The translations under genes were made by a program, and so were the position numbers. This document shows positions 1 through 45,741 of a stretch of 64,000 nucleotides of DNA, in pieces. Source of the DNA: Naegleria gruberi (lineage: Eukaryota); NCBI GenBank assembly GCA_000004985.1, contig GG738860.1; one strand, written 5' to 3'. Within the stretch, counting starts at the first letter, position 1. Each line of letters begins with the position of its first letter. The notes below the pieces were generated by a model. The model ran no database searches. It was not told where the DNA came from and worked only from the letters and a program-made list of their open reading frames with translations.

Positions 1-161
1 TACGGTTTTTTTAAAAGATTTTCTTAAACAATCCAGCTATTAATAAGAAGATTTTTATTAACAGGTTGCTTCGCCAAGTTGATATTTGTGGTTCCACATG
101 TTTTAATACAGAGCTAGAGAAAATGCAATAATTTAAGTTTTAATAATAAATATATAAATAA

Positions 162-2941
162 TTAATAAGTTCCTTGATACATTTCATCAATATATGTTCT
201 GTACTTTTGAACAATATTGTTACGTTTAAGCTTGAAAGCAGCTGTTAAGAGATCGTTTTCAGGTGACCAAACATCATCAAAGACACGAATGGCCTTAATT
301 TCTTCATATCTCTTAAGCTTGTAGGTCTTAGCCAATTCTTCCAATGATTTCAAGATGTGTTGTTGGACCTTTGGATGTTTACAAATTTCAGAGAAGGTAC
401 CAGTAATGCCATTTTCTTCAGCAAATCTCTTGGTTGGACCTGGTTGAGCGATGACAATGGCAACAGGGAATGAACCGAAGCTGTCTCCATAGACCATGAT
501 ACCATTTGGTGCAACGTATGGACAACCGTTATAGATACTCTCCAATCTTTCCAAAGCAATATATTCACCATGGGATAACTTGACTAAATTCTTAACACGA
601 TCAATAATTGAAATTGTACCATCCTCATTCCTAAAAAGTTGAATTGTTGAAAAGTAAAAGGTCAAATTAGTATTCAAAAAGAAATGTAAACCTACAATTG
701 ACCAACATCTCCTGTCAAGAAGTATCCATCTTCCATGAATGCTTCCTTTGTCTTTTCAGGTTGCTTATAGTAACCTAGGGCGACAGAGTTACCTCTGATG
801 GCAATCTCTCCTCTTGGTACTGGGCTATCTGCCAAATAATTCAAGTGTGGAACTGAGATTAATTTGATTTCAACACATGGAACAACAACACCAGCAACAT
901 TGGTTTGGAATTTAGCTTCTGGCATTAAAATGACCTAAAGAAATGTTAAATCTTCTCTCCACGATAAATCTTCTACTTACACCTGCAGCACTAGTCTCAG
1001 TAAGACCATATCCTTGGAAGGTACTGGCTCCAAAGCAAACTCTGAAGAATTCTTGACTTTGTTTTGAAAGTGGAGCACCTCCAGAAAGGCATCCTACCAA
1101 TCTTCCACCAGCCATACTCTTAATCTTTCTGAAAATCAAAAAGTTGAACAATGGTGTATCTCTTCCATTCTTAAGAGCATTAAGTTTACAATCATAAGCA
1201 GTCTTGAAAAGCCATTGAATGATTGGTGAACCTGCCTTAATCTTTTCAGAAACACCCTTCTTAATGGTGTCGTATCTGTATGAAAGATATAATAATAAGG
1301 ACATTAGTCGCATATAAAATCATTTCGCACAAACAATCGCAGATTTAAATTAACCAAAAAAAAGCTTGAAAACTTACACTCTTGGTACACCACAAAATAT
1401 TCTTCCGTAATAAATTGAAAAAAATGTACGAAAGATAGTTAAGCACAAATTGACAATATCAGCCACTACTTACTGAGGTGCTACAGCTTCAAGATCACCA
1501 ACAGGTCTGGCAGTCTAATTATTTGAAGTGAATTATGAAACATTGAAATGTTAATAATTATCAAAAAACACTACTTGCCTTAGTTGTAAGAGTTTTGGAG
1601 TTTCCGTATCCGATTTTTCCTGTTTTATGAATGTTGTGAAGTAAACGTGATTTGGTGTGGAATTTGGTAAATAATGATATTGTTGTAACATTTTACATTC
1701 TTTTGAATACTACTACTTACCTCCAAGACCCAAGATGTAATGTTCAGCAGCCATTTCCAAAATGTGAGAAAGTGGAAGATATCCCAAATAAGTCTAGTAT
1801 TACTGTAATGAGCAATCAATTTTAAAATGAGATACTTACTCTATTGTCACATTATTAATAATGGTGAAAAACTGAAATACTTACGGATTCTTGACGTGTG
1901 GCAAACCAAATTGCTCACGTGCACCCACGGAAATCGAAAGTATATTTTTTGCTGTTAGCATTACACCTTTTGGCTAATGATTAGAATACAAATAGATTAG
2001 ATCTGTAAATAATAATTCATAATTACCTTTGAAGTAGTTCCGGAAGTGTACATGACAACAGTCAAACTATCACCTCTTTGTTCTTCCTTAACTGGAATTG
2101 GATTTGTTTCTTGTTTTCCTAATTCTTCAACTTCTTCAAAGGACAAAACAGAAACACCATTCTTTTCCAATTCAGCAATATGCTTTTGAGTTTCTTCCTT
2201 CTTACCTTCCCAAGATGATGCATAGATGAGGTACTTTAAAGTTGGAGTATTTGGAGTAATTTGATAGGCAAGCTTTTTCAATGATGCTTCATTAACTAAC
2301 ATGGCTGGAAGTTCACATTCATTAACAGCCTCAATGAGTGATTCATCACCCAAAGTAGAGTAAACTGTCATTACAGTAATGTTGTATCTCATGCAAGCGT
2401 GGAGAGTCATTAACCATTCCTTACGAGTTTCTTCAAAGATACCAAAAAAGTCCTTAGAGTTCAAGCCAGTGAAACGTGCAATACCACGTGAAAGATTAAT
2501 AATTCTACTATAGATTTGATTGTAGGTTTCATACTTGACATCGTCAAAGTGGAAAACTTCCCAGTCCTTACCATCAAGCTTTTCAACAGACTTATTCTTG
2601 AAAGTACGACTACCAAGCATTGGCAAATCACCAAATTGTTTAACAACATGATCCAACAGTCCGTTGAGTGTAGTTACACCAGGAACTGGAGTGCTAATTA
2701 ATTCCTTTTCATAGCCAACTCTTCTGATTGGCTTTGTTTCTTCACCAGGTTTATAGTTTGGATCATCGACTTGAACAGTATAGGATTTCAAGTGATCAAA
2801 TCTTCCTCTCAAGTCAGCAGGTAAGAAATCCTTACCAAACAAGATTCTAAAGATGATGTAGCAGAAGCGATCCACCAAAGACAAGATGAAGGCGATAATT
2901 TTCAACAGAAGTGATTTTATCATTTTTTTTTGAAAGTTCAT
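162..2941 (-). CDS. Long-chain fatty acid-CoA ligase (acyl-CoA synthetase, ACSL/Faa family). Multi-exon: large 5' exon 1997-2941, several micro-exons between 1314 and 1996, then exons about 912-1313, 692-925 and 162-677
   Basis: The N-terminal exon ends in the AMP-binding motif YTSGTTSK, continued in the next exon as ...KGVMLTAKNILSISVGAREQFGLPHVKNP followed by a GTAAGT donor. Downstream exons carry ...GGAPLSKQSQEFFRVCFGASTFQGYGLTETSAAG..., ...GEIAIRGNSVALGYYKQPEKTKEAFMEDGYFLTGDVGQL and ...DGTISIIDRVKNLVKLSHGEYIALERLESIY..., which are typical ACSL motifs. Stop codon at 162-164. Confidence 0.85.
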
Positions 2942-12112: not shown

Positions 12113-13696
12113 TTACCATTCATCATCTGAATCAGTATCAGAATCCTCTTCGTCATGGATACCAGTGTTAGAGAACTTTTTCATGAGATATGACTTGAAA
12201 CCTTCCTTTTCATTTTCTGTAAAATCAGTTACAGGTGGAGGTGTTGGATTCTTCAAATTGTCCTTAGAGAAAGTCTTGATTTCAGAAAGGAAGTCAGCAG
12301 GCTTTGATGGAAGAGGTGGCTTTGAGACTGGAGGGGAGGTTGGAGTGGCCTTTGGTTTGACCTCAACCTTAATTGGACCTCCTCCCATTGGTGGTGGTGG
12401 TGGAATAGCTCCAACAGGAGGTGGTGGTGGAATAGATCCTCCCATTGGGGGTGGTGGTGGTACAGCAAAACTTCCTCCTCCCATAGGTGGTGGTGGTGGT
12501 GGAATAGATCCCATTGAAACTGGTGGTGGAGGTGGAATACTACCTGCTCCTCCATCATAGTCATCTGAAACATATGAAGTCATTGGTGGAGGTGGTGGAA
12601 CTGATCCTCCCATTGGTGGAGGTGGAGGAACAGATCCCATAGATACAGGCATAGGTGGAGGTGGAGGAACACCACTGGATGGTGAAGAAACTCCAAAAGG
12701 TGGTGGAGGAGGTGGAACTCTTCCTGAAGATGCATCACTAGAGACTGTTCTAATCTCATCAACAATTTGATTGTCATCTTCATGTGCCTTTTGTCTTTGT
12801 TTGGCAACTTTCTTTTCATACTTGTGCATGAGTTTTTGGAGACGTTCTTGAGTCTTTGGATCATTAGCTTCAACACCCATACCTCCCAAAACGTCCAAGT
12901 ATTCAGTTGGAAGACCGCTAGCTTCAAATTGGCCAGTTTCATGATTGATACCAACGTGAGCAGTGTTTTGGAAATTCTTTACAGAGCCCATTCTAAAGTT
13001 TGATCTTGAAGGTCTATTGTCAACTGGTTCTTCGACTGGTTTGACTTCTTCCTTCTTCAAGAACTTATCCTTGACACCTCTAAAGAAACCAAAGACACCA
13101 CCTGCTGCCTTTTCTTCCTTCTTTGGTACAGGACTACTTGGAGAAGATGTTTGAGGGAGTGGATTCTTTGGCTTGTCATTGGATGGCTTACTGATTGATT
13201 CAGGAAGTGGTGGTGGATTACTTGTTGCATTTGATGATACACTAGTTGGTGGAGAAGCAGAGACAACATTAGAGAGACGGTTGTTAACAAAGCTGCTAAA
13301 CTTTGAAGCAGCAGTCTTACTATTCAAGGCAACATTGATACCAACAATTCTATCATCGCTTTCAAAGGAAATAAAATTGTCATTCAATTGTTCAAATTGG
13401 AATTGTTCATAACATTCATGAGACCAAGTAACTTGATTGGTTTCAACATTGATTAGTTTCAAACAAAAGACATTGTTCATCAAATCCTTTCCGAAATAAA
13501 GGGCTCCCCAAATACCAGTATAAGACCATTCTTCTTCACCTTGCATACTTTCATAGATTGAAACAACAGCGCTTTGTTCAACACTCTTTTAAAAATATTA
13601 AGCGAATGATAATTTTATAAATCAACCTACCAAACCCTTAGTGGCAGTGAGAACAACACTAACGTCCAAAGGATCATATAATTCCTTATTGCTCAT
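12113..13696 (-). CDS. WASP (Wiskott-Aldrich syndrome protein / Las17 homolog) with complete WH1-basic-CRIB-polyPro-WH2-central-acidic architecture. 2 exons: 13631-13696 and 12113-13585
   Basis: The WH1/EVH1 N-terminus (…LTATKG|[31 protein letters not shown]…) spans the intron. The CRIB motif is [17 protein letters not shown]. Seven reiterated (G/S)xPPPPP(M/V) proline motifs follow. The WH2-like segment is [11 protein letters not shown]...KDNLK and the acidic C-terminus is ...[15 protein letters not shown]. Confidence 0.85.
12270..12730 (-). repeat. Coding tandem repeat: seven or more poly-proline modules (G/S-x-PPPPP-M/V) inside the WASP gene
   Basis: Reiterated CCN codon blocks. They produce the spurious poly-Gly ORFs seen on the opposite strand (12165-12560 +). 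Confidence 0.8.
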
Positions 13697-14085
13697 TTTT
13701 CTATTTTTTTTAAAATTTGATATTTTTAATAACCTTGATCATCTTGGAACATGCTGATGATGACTATTAAGATATTAAACTTCGTAAGGGCATGGAACCT
13801 TGTTCACTTTTCAATCACGTCTCTTTCAATGCCAGGCAAAACTATTGTTGCACAAATAAATCTTAATATCTTTCACAACTTCCACTAGCATTTATTTTGC
13901 TGCCTGACAGACAACCTATCAACACTTTAATGATTGCCCTGACATTCATATAGCCTTAAAAAAATGAGCAACAGCCAACGAAAAAGTAAGCAATCAACAG
14001 CAGCAGCAGCTCCTCATCAGAAGCTTCTTCATCACAACAGCAACGGGATGAAAGTCTACTATTGTTAGCCTACGAGGGTGAGAAT

Positions 14086-15549
14086 ATGAAACGATATCCA
14101 ACAAGAAGAGCATCACAATTAGCAAATGAAGCCTTGGAAATTGATAAGACAGATGATGAAGGTTTGTTTTTTCATCAATTAGGAAATTAAATTGAAACTC
14201 TAATAGATTATATTGACGAGGAAGCAGCTTCATCTAGTGATTCCTTTGATGATGAGGAAACTCTTGAAGCTGACTATGAAAGTGATTCAGATTCACAGAA
14301 AGAAAAACCATCATCTAAACGTAAGTCACTCTGTCAAAATATCAATCAATATTAATTTCATTCGTTTACCTTATTAACAACAGGTTCTCAAATATCAAAA
14401 CCTGCTAGACATGTATTAATGTCATGGTTGGAGGAACACTTTGAGCATCCCTATCCTGATGATAACCAAAAAGAAGAATTGATGAAAAAGACCGGTCTCA
14501 CCATTAATCAAATTAATATTTGGTTTGTAAATTCAAGAATGAGAGTGTGGAAGCCTAGGCATCACGATTCACAAATTACCAAGACTGAACCAAATTCACC
14601 AAATGGAAATTCTGATGGTTCAGGAAGTAAGCCAAGACAAGAGAAGAAAATAGACATGTTGAATGATGAATTGAAATCATCACTTGCAGCTCGAATTAAT
14701 CCAAACAATGCCAATGTTACCAGGACAAATATTGTGGGAAGTTTGCCTAATGGTCTACCAACTCCATCCACAGTCATCTGTAGAGGAAACTTACCTAAAG
14801 AAGCTGTTGATTCATTGCTCAAGTGGTTATTCGATAACTTTAGTCATCCATATCCTTCAGATGCAGAGAAAGATGTATTGGCTGAAGAAACAAATCTTAC
14901 CTTAACACAAGTCAACAATTGGTTCATCAATGCAAGAAGGAGAATATGGAAACCAATTCTCCAAAAAATCAAATCAAAGGGAATGGATAAAGATGAACTC
15001 CTTTCTCAAGGAAAACTATCAGAAGTTGCCAAATCATTCTATAAGGACCAGAAAATTGGGGAAGAGGAACCAACAAAGAGGAAATCTAAAAGCTCCAAAG
15101 GAGGTTACAGCTCAGATCATGAAGAATCCACACCTAAAAAGCAAAAGAGGGACAACTCTCTCCTCATACCTCAAGACCTGATGACCCATACAGAGCCAAC
15201 CATTACAAGAGAATCAACGATCAAAACTAGACCAAAAATTGAAAATAACAAATTAACTCATAGAGAGCTATTCATTGATCAATACAGACTCTCAATGGAG
15301 AATCAAAAGCTTGAGGAAGATATTCATCAAGTCTATGACAGGTATGCCTCAGTTTTGGAAAATATCAGTGAAAAGAATGTGAAACTTCTCTCCCACATTA
15401 CCCTCCTCGAACAAAAGCAACAACAAATAAGATTGAATAATGAACTCTTGAAGAAAGAGGTTGATTTATTGAGAAGTAGTAAGGTGGTGAATTCTAATCC
15501 TTTCAACGTGGGTTCATTCCTCGTGGAAGAATTAGGATCTTCAATGTAA
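14086..15549 (+). CDS. TALE-class homeobox protein with two homeodomains and a C-terminal coiled coil, 3 exons (14086-14161, 14207-14320, 14384-15549)
   Basis: HD1 is ARHVLMSWLEEHFEHPYPDDNQKEELMKKTGLTINQINIWFVNSRMRVWKP. HD2 is LPKEAVDSLLKWLFDNFSHPYPSDAEKDVLAEETNLTLTQVNNWFINARRRIWKP. Both carry the TALE three-residue-insertion HPYP signature and the WFxNxR recognition helix. Splice phases were checked by hand. Confidence 0.8.
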
Positions 15550-32896: not shown

Positions 32897-32977
32897 GTTG
32901 AGGTGGCCGAGTGGTTAAGGCGCCAGCCTGCTAAGTTGGTGGAGTAATCCGCGTGGGTTCGAATCCCATCCTCAACG
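32897..32977 (+). tRNA. tRNA-Ser (anticodon GCU), with an oligo-T Pol III terminator immediately downstream (32978-32984)
   Basis: Hand-folded cloverleaf. The acceptor stem is GTTGAGG/CCTCAAC. The A box is TGGCCGAGTGG. The anticodon loop CTGCTAA gives anticodon GCT. A long variable arm is present, as expected for class II Ser tRNAs. The B box is GGTTCGAATCC. The gene is followed by TTTTTTT. Confidence 0.9.
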
Positions 32978-41967: not shown

Positions 41968-43029
41968 TTACAATAATTTCAAATGTTTTGTAACAGTATC
42001 AATTAATTCTACAGGAGCTGGACCAATTCCAAGTACTGTTTTCGATCCAGCTTCAATTTGAGTTCTTCCAGCATCAACAACAAGATAACAATTCAAACGT
42101 TGTTGTAAACATTTTTGAAATAAATTATCCAATTCCTTATCACTATCTGCTTTAAGACAAATCTTAGCTTCAGCTGTTACTTCCCAGTCATGTAAATATT
42201 GTTTCCATTGTTGCATATCTTGGTTGGTGATTTGTGTTGGCTCTGAATTTGATGATGAAAATAATAATTGAGTTTGAGCAAAATAGGAGGTGTTTTCATA
42301 GAGAATATTTCTATAGAGACCGACAGCTGCATGACAACATTGAGCAGCAATCTTTCCTTTACCCATATTCAAATCATTTCTAACAACAAATACCATCTTG
42401 TAAGCCTTTGATGTCGGGAATGATTTCATCAAATATTCTTGATATTTTTGATNNNNNNNNNNNNNNNNNNNNNNNNNNNNNNNNNNNNNNNNNNNNNNNN
42501 NNNNNNNNNNNNNNNNNNNNNNNNNNNNNNNNNNNNNNNNNNNNNNNNNNNNNNNNNNNNNNNNNNNNNNNNNNNNNNNNNNNNNNNNNNNNNNNNNNNN
42601 NNNNNNNNNNNNNNNNNNNNNNNNNNNNNNNNNNNNNNNNNNNNNNNNNNNNNNNNNNNNNNNNNNNNNNNNNNNNNNNNNNNNNNNNNNNNNNNNNNNN
42701 NNNNNNNNNNNNNNNNNNNNNNNNNNNNNNNNNNNNNNNNNNNNNNNNNNNNNNNNNNNNNNNNNNNNNNNNNNNNNNNNNNNNNNNNNNNNNNNNNNNN
42801 NNNNNNNNNNNNNNNNNNNNNNNNNNNNNNNNNNNNNNNNNNNNNNNNNNNNNNNNNNNNNNNNNNNNNNNNNNNNNNNNNNNNNNNNNNNNNNNNNNNN
42901 NNNNNNNNNNNNNNNNNNNNNNNNNNNNNNNNNNNNNNNNNNNTGTGTTCTTGTGATGACATTTTTTAATGAGTTGGAATTATTTTGAAAATAATCACAT
43001 GAGGAATAAATTGCAGAATTGAACATCAA
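41968..43029 (-). CDS. PTH2: Peptidyl-tRNA hydrolase 2 (PTH2). The 5' part of the gene is interrupted by the 490-N assembly gap (42454-42943), so the N-terminus and the start are unreliable
   Basis: The C-terminal catalytic domain is KMVFVVRNDLNMGKGKIAAQCCHAAVG...CYLVVDAGRTQIEAGSKTVLGIGPAPVELIDTVTKHLKLL, a PTH2 signature. Confidence 0.8.
   Translation of the reverse strand: MMFNSAIYSSCDYFQNNSNSLKNVITRTXXXXXXXXXXXXXXXXXXXXXXXXXXXXXXXXXXXXXXXXXXXXXXXXXXXXXXXXXXXXXXXXXXXXXXXXXXXXXXXXXXXXXXXXXXXXXXXXXXXXXXXXXXXXXXXXXXXXXXXXXXXXXXXXXXXXXXXXXXXXXXXXXXXXXXXXXXXXXXXXXXXXXQKYQEYLMKSFPTSKAYKMVFVVRNDLNMGKGKIAAQCCHAAVGLYRNILYENTSYFAQTQLLFSSSNSEPTQITNQDMQQWKQYLHDWEVTAEAKICLKADSDKELDNLFQKCLQQRLNCYLVVDAGRTQIEAGSKTVLGIGPAPVELIDTVTKHLKLL
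42454..42943. other. Assembly gap (490 N) inside the PTH2 gene. The poly-X ORFs in this region are artefacts
   Basis: Run of N in the sequence. Confidence 1.
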
Positions 43030-43290
43030 TCTCGAGCCAATAAATTCACAAACAATTAAGAACTCTCCAATTAGACTTTAGATAGTTAAGGGATTGTTGA
43101 CGGAAGAGAATTTCATGTTTTATAGTTAGTATTTATAGAAATTAATAACAATAATAATTTGTACTTCACAACAGGAAAGTTGAAGAAACAATAATTTTCA
43201 AGTGGAAACTTTACAATTTCTTTCATCAAGAGGATTATCCAATCAATCAATTATTGAAATAAAAAAAAATTCAAATCACCCAGATCTTCT

Positions 43291-45741
43291 TTGAACATGG
43301 CCAGAACCAAGCAAACAGCGAGAAAATCGACGGGTGGCAAAGCTCCAAGAAAACAATTGGCTTACAAAGCTAGAAAAGCAAACAGACCTTTCCCTTCCCG
43401 TTCGTTGGCAGGTCCTTTTTCTGATGAGGAAAAAGCAATTTTTGTGAATGGTTTGAAAAGAGCCTTCGATGGAAGTGAAGAATCATCAAAATTTGATGTA
43501 AATACCTATGAAGGAGCTTCACAATTAGTCAAATTTTGGATTTTCCAAGATCAAAAAAGAAGAAAATTGAAACCAATGGTAGAGGAAGCTAAATGGAATG
43601 GCAGCTTTGAATTGCTTCACAATCTTCCTATGGATATCAAGTATGAAATTATTGATTTTATTCCAACCTTTTCCTTGAGAGATTTTTACAAAATCAAGTT
43701 AGACGAATTCACTGAACAGATGAAGCTGGCACAAGTTGAAGATATTTCTAAAATTGTATGCAAAGGACTGAATTTGTTTGAAACCTTTACAAAGAGATCT
43801 TTTCAAAATTTGTACTATTCAGATCCTCTCTATAGAAACTATTACAAGAAGAGACTAATTAACAGAGAATATGCATTAAGAATGAAACAAAGGATATTGA
43901 AGTTGGATGAGTTTGATATTACAGATATTGATTATGATATTGGTTCTGTAAAGAAAGACAAACTATTGCACTTCTTTTCGTTGGTTAAGGAGATGAATGA
44001 AATTGACACTGTTGACTTTAATGATGTGGTCATTCACAGAAATATTGAAAAAATCAAGTCATTGGTAAATGGAACCACCACAAAAAGAAATGAAGATGAT
44101 TACGAGTCACCTTGTGAAGAACCAATGGATGATACTGATTCAATTAGTAATGAGCCTAATGTAACTGTATCATTTGATGAAATGGAGCTACTTTCTGAGG
44201 AAGAAATGAAAAAGTTAGAATCAAAATCTATTGCCATACTGCAGGAATCAGAAAGAGGATATTATAATACTCGTAATTACAATAAGTTTAACAAGCAAGA
44301 TAGTAAATCTTTTAGAAAGCAAGCGATGTATTCGTATGCTATACCATTGGAACTAATAGGAACTGGTGCTATTCCACAAGAACAAAATTTTACTCGTGCC
44401 TTTTCTCACGAAGAGATTATGGAAAGGCTTAAGGAGTTTATTGGAATTAATTCATCCATTAAGAAACTTTCTGTCAGAGGTCTAGATGTCGGCTTTACAA
44501 ACACTGCCATGGACATCTGTAAAGGAATAACAGATCTTTCAATACTTTTATGTGAGTACGTGGATTATTTTGAGTGCTTTAAAGAAGTCCTACCAAATCT
44601 CAACAAGCTGACTATTAATGGAGTTTCTTCTCATTACTCAATTAGTTTTATGGAAAGCTTTATGATTGAGGAATATATTCAACCTAACTGTGTTGTTGAT
44701 TTAGGGTTTGCTACAGGCACTGACACATATTTCTCGGATTTTTTAAATCGTTATGTTGAAGATCAAAACGGTAACAAGACTCCATTGAAAATTACCTCAA
44801 AACTACTCTCAACTGAAAACGTAACCGAATATGCCGACTTTTTATTGAGGTTTATAGAAGGAGTATCTTTCGGCCAATTGTTTTCTGATTTTGATATGAA
44901 AAAGAAATTGGTAGATTACTTGGTAATTGAAGTTGGCATTCCAATTGAATGGCTTACGCTTACCACAAGTGGAGATACTATAATTACAGAATACTTAGCT
45001 TATCTTTCAAATGTTTATCAAAATGGGGCAATTAATTGTCCAAGCTCTATTATGTTACGAGCAGGCTTGATTCCAAATAATATAGCCAATGAATTGGTTT
45101 TTTCTAAATATGAATGGGATGTTGTTGAGTTATGTTTAGATTATTTAAAAAAGAGAGATGATATTGATGACTTTGTTTTGACCCTTAGAAATTTGCTCGT
45201 TTTCTATGTGTGTGATAGAAGTGATTCTCCACTCTTTGAACTATATTGTTACATTAAGAAGAATATTCCAGAAAGTCAATTCAAAGAAATTTTAAAGCCT
45301 ATCAAATGTATCATTCCAGAAGGCTACAAAGAAAAGAACAATGAAACCTTGCATACAGTTTCTATTCCCATCATTTGCTTCCCATTCTCAAATTACCAAT
45401 TCGCTAAAGCTATCGTGGATGATATGACAGACGAAGATTTGAAATTTGTTAATGAGCTTGGTGACTCATGTCTGCACATTTATTCTAGACATGACCATAG
45501 TATTTGGAGTAGAATAGTTGAAAGAGTACCAGAGGTAGTCAAACTCAGCAACCCTGAGGGAGTAACACCTTTACATATTCATACTACCAATATCCAGTCA
45601 TACATATTTGTATTAGACTTGTTGACAAGATTTGGTGCTGACCCAAATGCAAAAGATATTGAAGGAAGAAAAGCTATTGGTGAATTTTTTATATTTGAGA
45701 ATGGTATTTTGAAAGTTAACAACAGATCAATGGAATATTAG
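43291..45741 (+). CDS. F-box-like / ankyrin-repeat protein (816 aa) whose N-terminus mimics the histone H3 tail
   Basis: Residues 3-29 are [27 protein letters not shown], against H3 [28 protein letters not shown]. The F-box-like motif is [21 protein letters not shown]. The C-terminal ankyrin repeats include ...[11 protein letters not shown]...[20 protein letters not shown]. It is a single uninterrupted ORF. Confidence 0.75.
   Translation: [816 protein letters not shown]

Follow-up and report, generated by a model that had tools for sequence, protein, structure and literature searches.

A gene of Naegleria gruberi predicted to encode two TALE homeodomains and a leucine zipper in a single chain

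The locus is situated on the plus strand of a 64-kb stretch of DNA from Naegleria gruberi NEG-M (Heterolobosea), which was analysed whole and is called the window here. Splicing of three exons (Table 1) yields an open 451 aa protein. As an earlier note on this DNA had read it, this single protein displays two TALE homeodomains (HD1 and HD2) and a leucine-zipper-like coiled coil: there are two Pfam Homeobox_KN matches, followed by a predicted 81-residue helix. The locus is a real gene, and its product a probable transcription factor with these three elements. Nine alternative protein models or open reading frames of the locus, variants starting at 13964 included, show no exact match in the protein collection, and no N. 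gruberi reference gene model for the locus was found there. The gene seems to be missing from the N. gruberi reference protein set.

Table 1. Positions in the window of the exons, introns and predicted protein elements of the double-homeodomain gene
Feature	Position	Strand	Remarks
Candidate 5′ extension or upstream ORF	13964..14085	+	ATG at 13964; frame broken; downstream frame colinear with N. fowleri N-terminus
Exon 1, conservative model	14086..14161	+	aa 1–25
Intron 1	14162..14206	+	45 nt, GT-AG; N. fowleri intron at same position
Exon 2	14207..14320	+	bulk of acidic Asp/Glu/Ser-rich region and HD1 residues 1–3
TALE homeodomain 1 (HD1)	14308..14559	+	aa 60–122, split by intron 2; EHPYP, WFVNSRMR; 71.1 bits, pLDDT >90
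Intron 2	14321..14383	+	63 nt, GT-AG; within HD1 N-terminal arm; position SK/R (intron at the slash) as in N. fowleri
Exon 3	14384..15549	+	remaining HD1, linker, HD2, zipper, tail, stop codon
Invariant 29 aa motif RINPNNANVTRTNIVGSLPNGLPTPSTVI	14692..14778	+	aa 167–195, reaching into HD2 N-terminal arm; pLDDT <50
TALE homeodomain 2 (HD2)	14770..14958	+	aa 193–255; SHPYP, WFINARRR; 77.6 bits; MEIS/PKNOX-like
Helical extension 3′ of HD2	14986..15054	+	aa 265–287; AlphaFold helices 266–271 and 275–290, pLDDT about 90
Basic patches KRKSKSSK and PKKQKR	15076..15150	+	aa 295–319; sequence reading
Leucine-zipper-like coiled coil	15247..15489	+	AlphaFold helix aa 352–432, heptad core aa 356–426
Conserved C-terminal tail FLVEELGSSM	15517..15546	+	aa 442–451; orthologue comparison

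Both intron positions are those of the annotated N. fowleri orthologue. The acidic region (aa 18–55) starts within exon 1. An alternative donor would end exon 2 at 14332 and add the residues KSLC; the N. fowleri alignment favors 14320. Exon 3 carries a 376 aa uninterrupted open reading frame with all of HD2 and all of HD1 except its first three residues, thus no splicing is required to join the two homeodomains. The start codon is uncertain and lies either at 14086 or at the upstream ATG. Frame 0 of the upstream region reads ...SSQQQRDESLLLLAYEGEN-MKRYP, compared with ...KRDESHLLLGGGG...EKRYP in N. fowleri, and either an indel in the assembly or a GT-AG intron (35, 38 or 83 nt) can restore the frame from 13964. 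By analogy with Marchantia BELL3/4, which produce short transcripts of this HD2-only kind (PMC8476127), an internal promoter may give an isoform with HD2 only.

Scans of the 64-kb window for tRNA, Rfam elements and tandem repeats show no element related to the gene. The MEIS-type site TGACAG is found 27 times in the window against 38 expected and is not enriched; one copy is at 13905, upstream of the gene. There is no case for autoregulation.

The homeodomains were assessed with Pfam Homeobox_KN (PF05920) at a cut-off of 24 bits, and each domain was also scanned alone. The profile matches twice at full length (1–40/40), HD1 alone giving 71.1 bits and HD2 alone 77.6 bits, values that chance would not nearly reach, so that both domains score in the search the earlier note had proposed. 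Its distance of about 150 aa between them is too large, as the domain starts are 133 aa apart and the linker is 70 aa. In both domains the loop from helix 1 to helix 2 has the three extra residues of the TALE class (P-Y-P at positions 24–26, within HPYP), and this insertion and the previously noted WF(V/I)N(S/A)R helix are seen in the alignment of both. The HD1 recognition helix WFVNSRMRVWKP carries V50, N51, R53 and M54, and the HD2 helix WFINARRRIWKP carries I50, N51, R53 and R54. As read from the alignment, both domains keep R5, W48, F49, N51, R53 and R55, which serve the fold and DNA contact. AlphaFold gives pLDDT values >90 for HD1 and HD2 and shows no fixed packing or defined contact between them (pTM 0.29, a value at which comparing the entire chain with known folds carries no meaning). 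The two domains may form an intramolecular heterodimer, as the earlier note suggested.

With E-values up to 0.1, the full-length protein matches only two Pfam entries, Homeobox_KN and Homeodomain. At this threshold no MEIS-A/B (Meis_PKNOX_N, PF16493), PBC-A/B, KNOX1/KNOX2/ELK or POX (SKY/BELL) domain was detected in it; PF16493 is present in the animal matches and absent from the heterolobosean ones. PKNOX1 and MEIS2 structures match HD2 at full length with an E-value of about 1e-17 and ~57–60% identity. PBX structures align to HD1 when the whole protein is the query, however a PBX-like HD1 was rejected as an artefact of listing the best stretch per target, since HD1 alone as query prefers MEIS (58.7 bits) to PBX (48.5 bits). 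With an HD1 profile, heterolobosean HD2-type domains reach 98–110 bits, MEIS 90–94, BELL 86–89, KNOX 80 and PBX 71–76. A database search with the HD1-only profile gave 266 candidates, all of them short fragments lacking names, and is uninformative for class. HD1 has V50 and HD2 has I50 in place of the PBC hallmark G50. By these comparisons both homeodomains are MEIS-like and HD1 does not have a PBC-type partner identity. The pairing of two different TALE classes implied earlier is at odds with the MEIS preference of HD1 and with the first rank of heterolobosean HD2-type domains in its profile.

The linker ends in a motif of 29 residues that is identical in five orthologues despite many synonymous codon differences, and this invariant stretch before HD2 has no Pfam match. 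The helical extension that follows HD2 shows about 50% conservation among orthologues. Orthologues also display basic patches at the same place as KRKSKSSK and PKKQKR, which are probably a nuclear localization signal. In the AlphaFold model the zipper is a single 81-residue helix with pLDDT 96–98; the coiled coil described in the earlier note is thus present, but it is shorter than the ~90 aa given there. The heptad core with its 3–4 hydrophobic spacing is found family-wide in an alignment of 20 members. The d positions are L359, L366, L373 (in 18 of the 20 sequences) and V380, then, after a stutter, I391, L398, L405, I412 and L419. Polar residues at a positions are N370 (19/20 sequences), N395, Q409 and N416. 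Leucine at d combined with Asn or Gln at a, as in GCN4-type zippers, favors parallel dimers, and the zipper would form such dimers here. The C-terminal tail has counterparts in N. fowleri and N. lovaniensis (FLIEDLCSSL), in P0005 (FLIQELG) and in P0008 (LIESLGA).

A family of TALE homeodomain proteins with a C-terminal leucine zipper was defined by a WFINARRR.W[KR]P helix and, downstream, a C-terminal heptad helix with an invariant Asn (RLxxENxxL); the N. gruberi protein displays both in the 20-member alignment. Relatives with two homeodomains are found in N. fowleri, N. lovaniensis, Willaertia magna (two paralogues), Pharyngomonas kirbyi and several environmental sequences. Two Homeobox_KN stretches are present in every heterolobosean relative scanned (P0002, P0004, P0006, P0007 and P0008), and the assembled P. 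kirbyi transcript GECH01004741 is a complete open reading frame with both homeodomains. This unusual architecture, kept across species and contained in one Pharyngomonas transcript, is old, under selection and no annotation artefact. The locus shows that Heterolobosea have a conserved protein family that pairs a leucine zipper with two TALE domains joined in one chain. No description of heterolobosean double TALE proteins was found in the literature on double TALE, Naegleria homeobox or Acrasis homeobox/homeodomain, and the one survey covering N. gruberi makes no mention of a double-TALE architecture (PMC6219170). In the N. fowleri transcriptome paper, the homeobox genes named are all from mouse. 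N. gruberi has 12 TALEs in all, and a PBC-like (JGI 78561) and a MEIS-like (JGI 79931) protein occur in it.

The two homeodomains are unequally conserved. Between N. gruberi and N. fowleri the identity is 63% for HD1 and 84% for HD2. HD1 is missing in N. fowleri P0011, although it is present in the Willaertia orthologue of P0011, and it is degenerate in P0153, P0163 and P0179. Together with the unusual residues I47, S52 and M54 of the N. gruberi HD1, this faster divergence and loss would fit an HD1 that does not bind DNA, being either a decaying duplicate or an interaction module that regulates HD2, e.g. by binding the invariant linker motif. However, all six fold and DNA-contact residues are retained in HD1 within its own orthologue group, the domain is matched over its full length at 71 bits and is modelled with high pLDDT. 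The signature WFVN[AS]R[VIM]R is common to all double-domain relatives, and V50 and the hydrophobic residue 54 are kept from Naegleria to Pharyngomonas, which speaks for a DNA specificity of HD1 that is distinct and under selection. An HD1 inert towards DNA therefore appears unlikely.

The origin of HD1 was approached with a neighbor-joining tree of 58 TALE homeodomains (500 bootstraps), in which only shallow groupings are usable. Orthologous HD1s cluster (73%), as do orthologous HD2s (50–62%), and HD1 and HD2 of the same protein never do; the arrangement thus predates these splits. The deep nodes, with support below 12% for monophyly of HD1 or of HD1 plus HD2, do not decide between duplication and fusion. 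The identity differences are small (HD1–HD2 46–63%, HD1–MEIS 45–60%), so that duplication is no more than weakly favored over fusion. Most likely, HD1 would have arisen by an ancient intragenic duplication of an HD2-type domain in the heterolobosean stem, then diverged faster and been lost or decayed in some paralogues. This view is based on the top score of heterolobosean HD2-type domains with the HD1 profile, on the lower conservation of HD1 and its absence or degeneration in paralogues, and on the same pattern in Marchantia BELL2/3/4 (PMC8476127).

The other origin considered is a covalent fusion of ancestral heterodimerizing classes, a PBC/BELL-like HD1 with a MEIS/KNOX-like HD2, which would give a true intramolecular heterodimer in place of a two-gene system. 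The hydrophobic residue 54 of HD1 and the resemblance of the helix WFVNARVRIWKP to BEL1 WFINARVRLWKP point in this direction, as do PBX-type domains, which score 11–12 bits higher with the HD1 profile relative to the HD2 profile, and the alignment of PBX structures to HD1 in the whole-protein query. Yet in absolute ranking PBX stands last with the HD1 profile, behind heterolobosean HD2-type, MEIS, BELL and KNOX domains. HD1 alone prefers MEIS, G50 is lacking, and no N-terminal PBC, POX/BELL, KNOX or MEIS domain was detected. Such a fusion is quite unlikely, and ancient internal duplication is weakly favored over a union of two TALE classes.

Taken as a whole, the protein is probably a nuclear sequence-specific factor, dimerized by its zipper, which places tethered homeodomains on composite sites and in which HD1 arose by duplication. 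From the N- to the C-terminus the layout is an acidic region, HD1, a flexible linker ending in the 29 aa motif, HD2 with a short helical extension, the basic patches, a two-segment zipper of ~70 residues, and the tail. Through the zipper two chains would pair in parallel, as homodimers or, with paralogues in the same register, as heterodimers, and each chain would bring a tethered pair of differing homeodomains to DNA. HD2 (I50/R54, MEIS-like) may recognize a TGACAG-type site and HD1 (V50, hydrophobic residue 54) a related TGAC/TGAT-type site. Composite or clustered sites would then be read with more specificity and affinity than by a single TALE domain, and the covalent link would replace heterodimerization of separate KNOX/BELL or MEIS/PBC partners. 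DNA binding, site preference, dimerization and nuclear localization are all predicted here from the amino acid sequence.

A more far-reaching proposal is that in Heterolobosea an ancestral two-gene TALE heterodimer switch was rebuilt as a covalent TALE–TALE unit. The zipper would pick the partner, paralogue or allele pairing would control a life-cycle transition (cryptic sex, encystment or the amoeba-flagellate change), and the 29 aa motif would dock a partner. This is regarded as very unlikely.

TALE pairs (KNOX/BELL, MEIS/PBC, fungal HD1/HD2) are regarded as an ancient means by which eukaryotes sense gamete fusion, and data from Excavata have been explicitly requested (PMC8476127). The earlier note had framed the gene by fungal mating types and recommended a comparison with MAT loci; the organism is a heterolobosean amoeba and not a fungus. 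The gene could nevertheless be, or mark, a mating-type or haploid-to-diploid life-cycle locus, like the fungal homeodomain MAT loci or algal GSP1/GSM1. In Chlamydomonas, Marchantia, brown algae and fungi, the zygote programme is under the control of TALE homeodomain proteins (PMC8476127; PMC6219170), Marchantia BELL2/3/4, which are expressed in gametes, likewise contain several TALE homeodomains (PMC8476127), and, speculatively, a zipper common to paralogues could pair the products of two mating types. Against this, six-frame scanning of the 64-kb window and of the 21.7-kb N. fowleri locus detects no homeobox gene beyond the double-homeodomain gene itself. The neighbors are Nop52, importin-beta, WASP-like, BRCT and RGS genes, which are of housekeeping type and colinear with N. 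fowleri, and the divergent neighbor is the WH1/PBD (WASP-like) gene, not a homeodomain gene. The allelic comparison proposed earlier as a search for idiomorphs gives no sign of idiomorph-like divergence in a minimal sample: over 2.4 kb the only other strain-level contig found has 98.96% identity, and its codons differ at 4 synonymous and 5 non-synonymous places, which is ordinary allelic divergence. In addition, with the two domains united in one chain from the start, the protein alone cannot signal that two cells have fused. The MAT-locus reading is rejected on gene content, synteny and the identity of this one pair of alleles, and a mating-type or life-cycle locus in the wider sense is highly improbable.

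Hardly credible is an artefact in which two adjacent single-homeodomain genes or separate transcripts were misread as one protein; the missing N. gruberi gene model would fit it, but both homeodomains lie in one stop-free exon, at least five species show the two joined without a break in this way, a single Pharyngomonas transcript covers both domains and the linker motif is strongly constrained at the protein level.

The zipper-dimerized double-homeodomain factor favored here is a domain architecture inferred from sequence and involves no new principle. Its gene is a concrete candidate for studies of Naegleria differentiation or of the suspected sexual cycle.

Several known systems share parts of this architecture. 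Animal MEIS/PKNOX (and TGIF) proteins have the same recognition helix, WFINARRR, as HD2, and HD1 is also best matched by MEIS. However, animal MEIS/PKNOX carry one homeodomain and MEIS-A/B, whereas the Naegleria protein carries two homeodomains and a C-terminal zipper and is without MEIS-A/B. After helix 3 it reads RIWKP, as in plant KNOX/BELL, in place of RIVQP in animal MEIS/PKNOX.

Plant HD-Zip proteins combine a homeodomain with a leucine zipper for dimerizing on DNA, as is proposed here, but the homeodomain is single and non-TALE and the zipper abuts helix 3. The Naegleria zipper core starts at aa 356, ~100 residues past the end of HD2 (aa 255), and is not of the HD-Zip arrangement. DUX4 and other double-homeodomain proteins place two tandem homeodomains of one chain on adjacent half-sites, and DUX4 structures are among the weaker PDB matches. 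DUX4 is however of the PRD class, without TALE insertion or zipper, and its linker is much shorter than the 70 aa linker of the Naegleria protein. In the fungal a1/alpha2 and bE/bW systems, MAT alpha2 has a TALE-type homeodomain, and the PDB matches to a1 and alpha2 structures are weak (E-values 1e-5 to 1e-3). The fungal proteins come from two separate genes, usually a divergent and idiomorphic pair, and none of these features is seen at the Naegleria locus.

A single homeodomain, which the earlier note took as normal for TALE proteins, is a general rule only, as TALE proteins with two or three homeodomains are published (PMC6118893; PMC8476127). Marchantia polymorpha MpBELL2/3/4 (BELL-gamete) likewise carry several TALE domains per chain, two or three; their C-terminal homeodomain is best conserved and the upstream copies diverge or decay, which is attributed to successive intragenic duplications (PMC8476127). 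The upstream homeodomain of the heterolobosean family takes the same path of divergence or decay. MpBELL2/3/4 belong to another supergroup and have an independent origin; they pair with KNOX1 and act at fertilization, with no zipper described. Spiralian TALE-IV genes, reported as the first multi-homeobox state in the TALE class, also have two TALE homeoboxes per gene (PMC6118893), but they are animal-specific, fast-evolving and non-canonical, of unrelated origin and with no coiled coil reported. Homeobox_KN further matches three times in Creolimax, four times in Chromosphaera, and twice each in Heterosigma and Thraustotheca. Multi-TALE proteins are thus present in several protist lineages (ichthyosporeans, stramenopiles, marine eukaryotes), beyond the published cases found. 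The multi-homeodomain TALE architecture is a polyphyletic class, and the Naegleria protein belongs to it.

The gene encodes one protein with two TALE homeodomains, HD1 upstream and HD2 downstream, followed by a C-terminal coiled coil, as the earlier note had proposed: a stop-free open reading frame of 451 aa gives two Homeobox_KN matches and a predicted helix at residues 352–432. Scanned separately, both domains are full length and score above the Homeobox_KN (TALE) Pfam gathering cut-off of 24 bits. Both display the HPYP loop, i.e. the three-residue TALE insertion, and the WF(V/I)N(S/A)R recognition helix claimed for them. The domain starts are 133 aa apart, not approximately 150 aa as first estimated.

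Features of the TALE gene, its protein and the divergent neighbouring gene
Feature	Window position	Residues (aa)	Strand	Remarks
WASP-like gene	12113–13546		−	protein (open reading frame 12116–13546) identical, residue for residue, to XP_002678874.1 (NAEGRDRAFT_65957) of Naegleria gruberi
Coding sequence, 3 exons	14086–14161, 14207–14320, 14384–15549		+	stop-free translation, 451 aa
Alternative exon 2 donor	14321–14332 (exon 2 end 14332)		+	second in-frame GT, 12 nt downstream; would add KSLC in the HD1 N-terminal arm
Acidic N-terminal region		18–55	+	strongly acidic
HD1		60–122	+	full-length Homeobox_KN, 71.1 bits
Invariant motif RINPNNANVTRTNIVGSLPNGLPTPSTVI	14692–14778	167–195	+	29 aa, directly N-terminal to HD2
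HD2		193–255	+	full-length Homeobox_KN, 77.6 bits
Putative nuclear localisation signal		295–319	+	basic patches, judged by the look of the sequence
Conserved C-terminal tail			+	FLVEELGSSM, kept in the orthologue group

Both introns, of 45 and 63 nt, are of the GT-AG type, and the annotated orthologue of N. fowleri has introns at exactly the same positions. Alignment with that orthologue supports the exon 2 end at 14320 over that at 14332; alternative splicing at these donors is possible. A single exon with a 376-aa open reading frame holds HD1 from its fourth residue on, the linker, HD2 and the zipper. The uninterrupted two-domain layout is also present in N. fowleri, N. lovaniensis, Willaertia magna (two paralogues), Pharyngomonas kirbyi and several environmental sequences. 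The P. kirbyi sequence GECH01004741 is a complete open reading frame with two TALE domains and comes from a transcriptome assembly, thus in Pharyngomonas HD1 and HD2 lie on one assembled transcript; an additional internal promoter within the N. gruberi gene is possible. Pharyngomonas is the earliest-branching heterolobosean lineage, and on that basis the two-domain architecture goes back to the heterolobosean stem.

Nine candidate protein models or open reading frames of the locus were looked up in a collection of 15 billion protein sequences and all were absent, and in a homology search with the TALE protein none of the matches named N. gruberi; the protein of the adjoining gene does occur in the collection. 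The reference protein set searched seems to have no model of the TALE gene, and the reference annotation may lack it.

The frame of 14086 is open for 27 further codons upstream, reading ...AINSSSSSSSEASSSQQQRDESLLLLAYEGEN, and this stretch and the N. fowleri N-terminus, ...KRDESHLLLGGGG...EKRYP, are colinear. The sole upstream ATG, at 13964, is out of frame with 14086; an assembly indel or a GT-AG intron of 35, 38 or 83 nt would bring the two into one frame. The frame break in 13964–14085 could be explained by one of these introns (very short at 35 or 38 nt), by such an indel or by an upstream open reading frame of 34 codons. Position 14086 is kept as the conservative start and 13964–14085 is flagged as a possible 5' extension or upstream open reading frame. 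One canonical MEIS-type TGACAG site is situated at 13905–13910, some 60 bp before the 13964 ATG; with 27 copies against 38 expected, TGACAG shows no enrichment in the window.

AlphaFold2, run on an alignment of 20 family sequences, predicts both homeodomains with pLDDT >90, two extra helices C-terminal to HD2 (266–271 and 275–290) and one continuous helix at residues 352–432 (pLDDT 96–98). The coiled coil is thus C-terminal as claimed, with 81 residues in place of about 90. The remainder of the protein is predicted to be disordered, and with a pTM of 0.29 the interdomain packing has no definition in the model. Across the 20 sequences the hydrophobic zipper core runs through positions 359, 366, 373, 377 and 384 and, beyond a one-step shift in register, 388, 391, 398, 402, 405, 412, 419 and 423. 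The d positions are mostly Leu, and conserved polar residues are found at a positions: N370 (19/20), N395, Q409 and N416 (15/20). In GCN4-type zippers, Asn buried at a positions favours parallel, in-register dimers. The pattern bears out the label "leucine-zipper-like" and supports parallel dimers, dimerisation itself being predicted. Because the register is common to paralogues, heterodimers between them are conceivable.

The closest homologues are found in N. fowleri (at 45% identity), N. lovaniensis, Willaertia magna and Acrasis kona, and the window belongs to a heterolobosean amoeba, not to a fungus. All heterolobosean relatives have an HD2-type helix 3, WFINARRR.W[KR]P, and a C-terminal helix with the common heptad pattern. 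Only a subset carries the extra N-terminal HD1, with the signature WFVN[AS]R[VIM]R.W[KR]P, i.e. V50 and a hydrophobic residue 54; the others have the HD2-type domain alone. A single-domain N. fowleri paralogue, P0011 (L003, contig VFQX01000027.1, 2748–3975), is preceded by about 250 bp of non-coding sequence without homeodomain-like sequence. Its Willaertia orthologue P0007 (98% bootstrap on HD2) retains both homeodomains, and P0011 has lost HD1. Some environmental members display a degenerate HD1. HD1 is the less conserved domain between N. gruberi and N. fowleri (63% identity, versus 84% for HD2), and across relatives the HD1-HD2 linker is about 20 to 80 residues long.

Conservation of the motif RINPNNANVTRTNIVGSLPNGLPTPSTVI exceeds that of either homeodomain, with 100% identity among N. 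gruberi, N. fowleri, N. lovaniensis, Willaertia and one environmental sequence. Its codons show many synonymous differences between N. gruberi and N. fowleri, and the constraint is thus on the protein level. The motif is predicted by AlphaFold2 to be disordered, which suggests a linear motif that may fold upon binding a partner.

Pfam detects no KNOX, ELK, POX/BELL, PBC or MEIS N-terminal domain in the protein, thus the classical TALE heterodimerisation modules are absent. The anatomy points to a nuclear transcription factor that would dimerise by its zipper, each chain offering two flexibly tethered TALE homeodomains of differing specificity; we consider this overall picture probable, its structural statements being much firmer than those on DNA binding and dimerisation. 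HD2 (I50/R54) would be expected to prefer a MEIS-type TGACAG site and HD1 (V50, M/I/V54) a related TGAC/TGAT-type site, and the range of linker lengths among relatives is consistent with half-sites at variable spacing. The acidic N-terminus is a possible activation region. The covalent HD1-HD2 link would stand in place of KNOX/BELL or MEIS/PBC heterodimerisation, with the zipper as a possible second level of partner choice.

As to the origin of the two domains, a neighbour-joining tree of 58 TALE homeodomains groups orthologous HD1s (73%) and orthologous HD2s (50–62%), while the deep nodes that bear on duplication versus fusion all have <12% support. Domains within one protein are mutual closest relatives in Creolimax, Heterosigma and Thraustotheca (84–88%), unlike in Heterolobosea. 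An HD1 profile scores highest with heterolobosean HD2-type domains (98–110 bits), followed by Acanthamoeba and animal MEIS (90–94), BELL (86–89), KNOX (80) and PBX (71–76); pairwise identities agree with this ranking, but weakly. We conclude that HD1 and HD2 are both MEIS-like, and for the origin of HD1 an ancient intragenic duplication, in the stem of Heterolobosea, has the better support. Fusion is less well supported: the hint of a PBC+MEIS fusion, given by PBX structures that matched HD1 when the whole protein was the query, is an artefact, and HD1 alone is closer to MEIS (58.7 bits) than to PBX (48.5 bits).

A likeness to fungal mating-type loci, raised in the earlier note, is not supported. 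Scanned in six frames, neither the 64-kb window nor the 21.7-kb N. fowleri locus shows a further homeodomain. Nearby lie the genes Nop52, importin-beta, a divergent WH1/PBD (WASP-like) gene, BRCT and RGS; the first four keep their order and orientation in N. fowleri where the loci overlap. The WASP-like protein has WH1, PBD and long proline-rich repeats (tandem DNA repeats at 12380–12637), and its divergent arrangement with the TALE gene is identical in N. fowleri. A metagenome contig of the one further strain compared, a close relative, is 98.96% identical across 2.4 kb; of the codon differences in exon 3, 4 are synonymous and 5 non-synonymous, and idiomorph-like divergence is not seen. On this minimal strain sampling nothing resembles an idiomorphic homeodomain MAT locus. 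V175L, within the RINPNNANVTRTNIVGSLPNGLPTPSTVI motif, occurs in the related-strain contig L001. Elsewhere in the window, an AT-rich block at 42001–44000 has a GC content of 0.24 versus about 0.34 outside it, and tRNA-Ser (GCT) at 32897–32977 (+) is the sole RNA gene detected.

The locus is moderately relevant to the evolution of TALE dimers, and the gene is a candidate regulator in Naegleria. A published survey of N. gruberi TALE genes counts 12, classifies two and does not mention the double-domain protein (PMC6219170); a literature search for heterolobosean homeodomain proteins found no paper. Spiralian TALE-IV genes have two homeoboxes, which their authors describe as the first multi-homeobox state of the TALE class (PMC6118893), and Marchantia MpBELL2/3/4 carry two or three homeodomains (PMC8476127). 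The multi-TALE principle is thus already known, and the Heterolobosea-wide combination TALE-TALE-leucine zipper appears to be new. An exhaustive profile search shows three TALE domains in Creolimax, four in Chromosphaera and two each in Heterosigma and Thraustotheca (proteins P0125, P0130, P0140 and P0143). The environmental eukaryote protein P0123, the only one of the environmental arrays scanned with Pfam, has seven Homeobox_KN stretches; P0122, P0129, P0134 and P0147, from environmental contigs, have roughly four to ten tandem TALE repeats, counted by eye. No discussion of these protist and environmental cases was found in the literature, and multi-TALE arrays occur in more protist lineages than the literature found describes. 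In Marchantia MpBELL2/3/4 the C-terminal domain is likewise the best conserved and the upstream copy diverges or decays, a pattern ascribed to successive intragenic duplications (PMC8476127).
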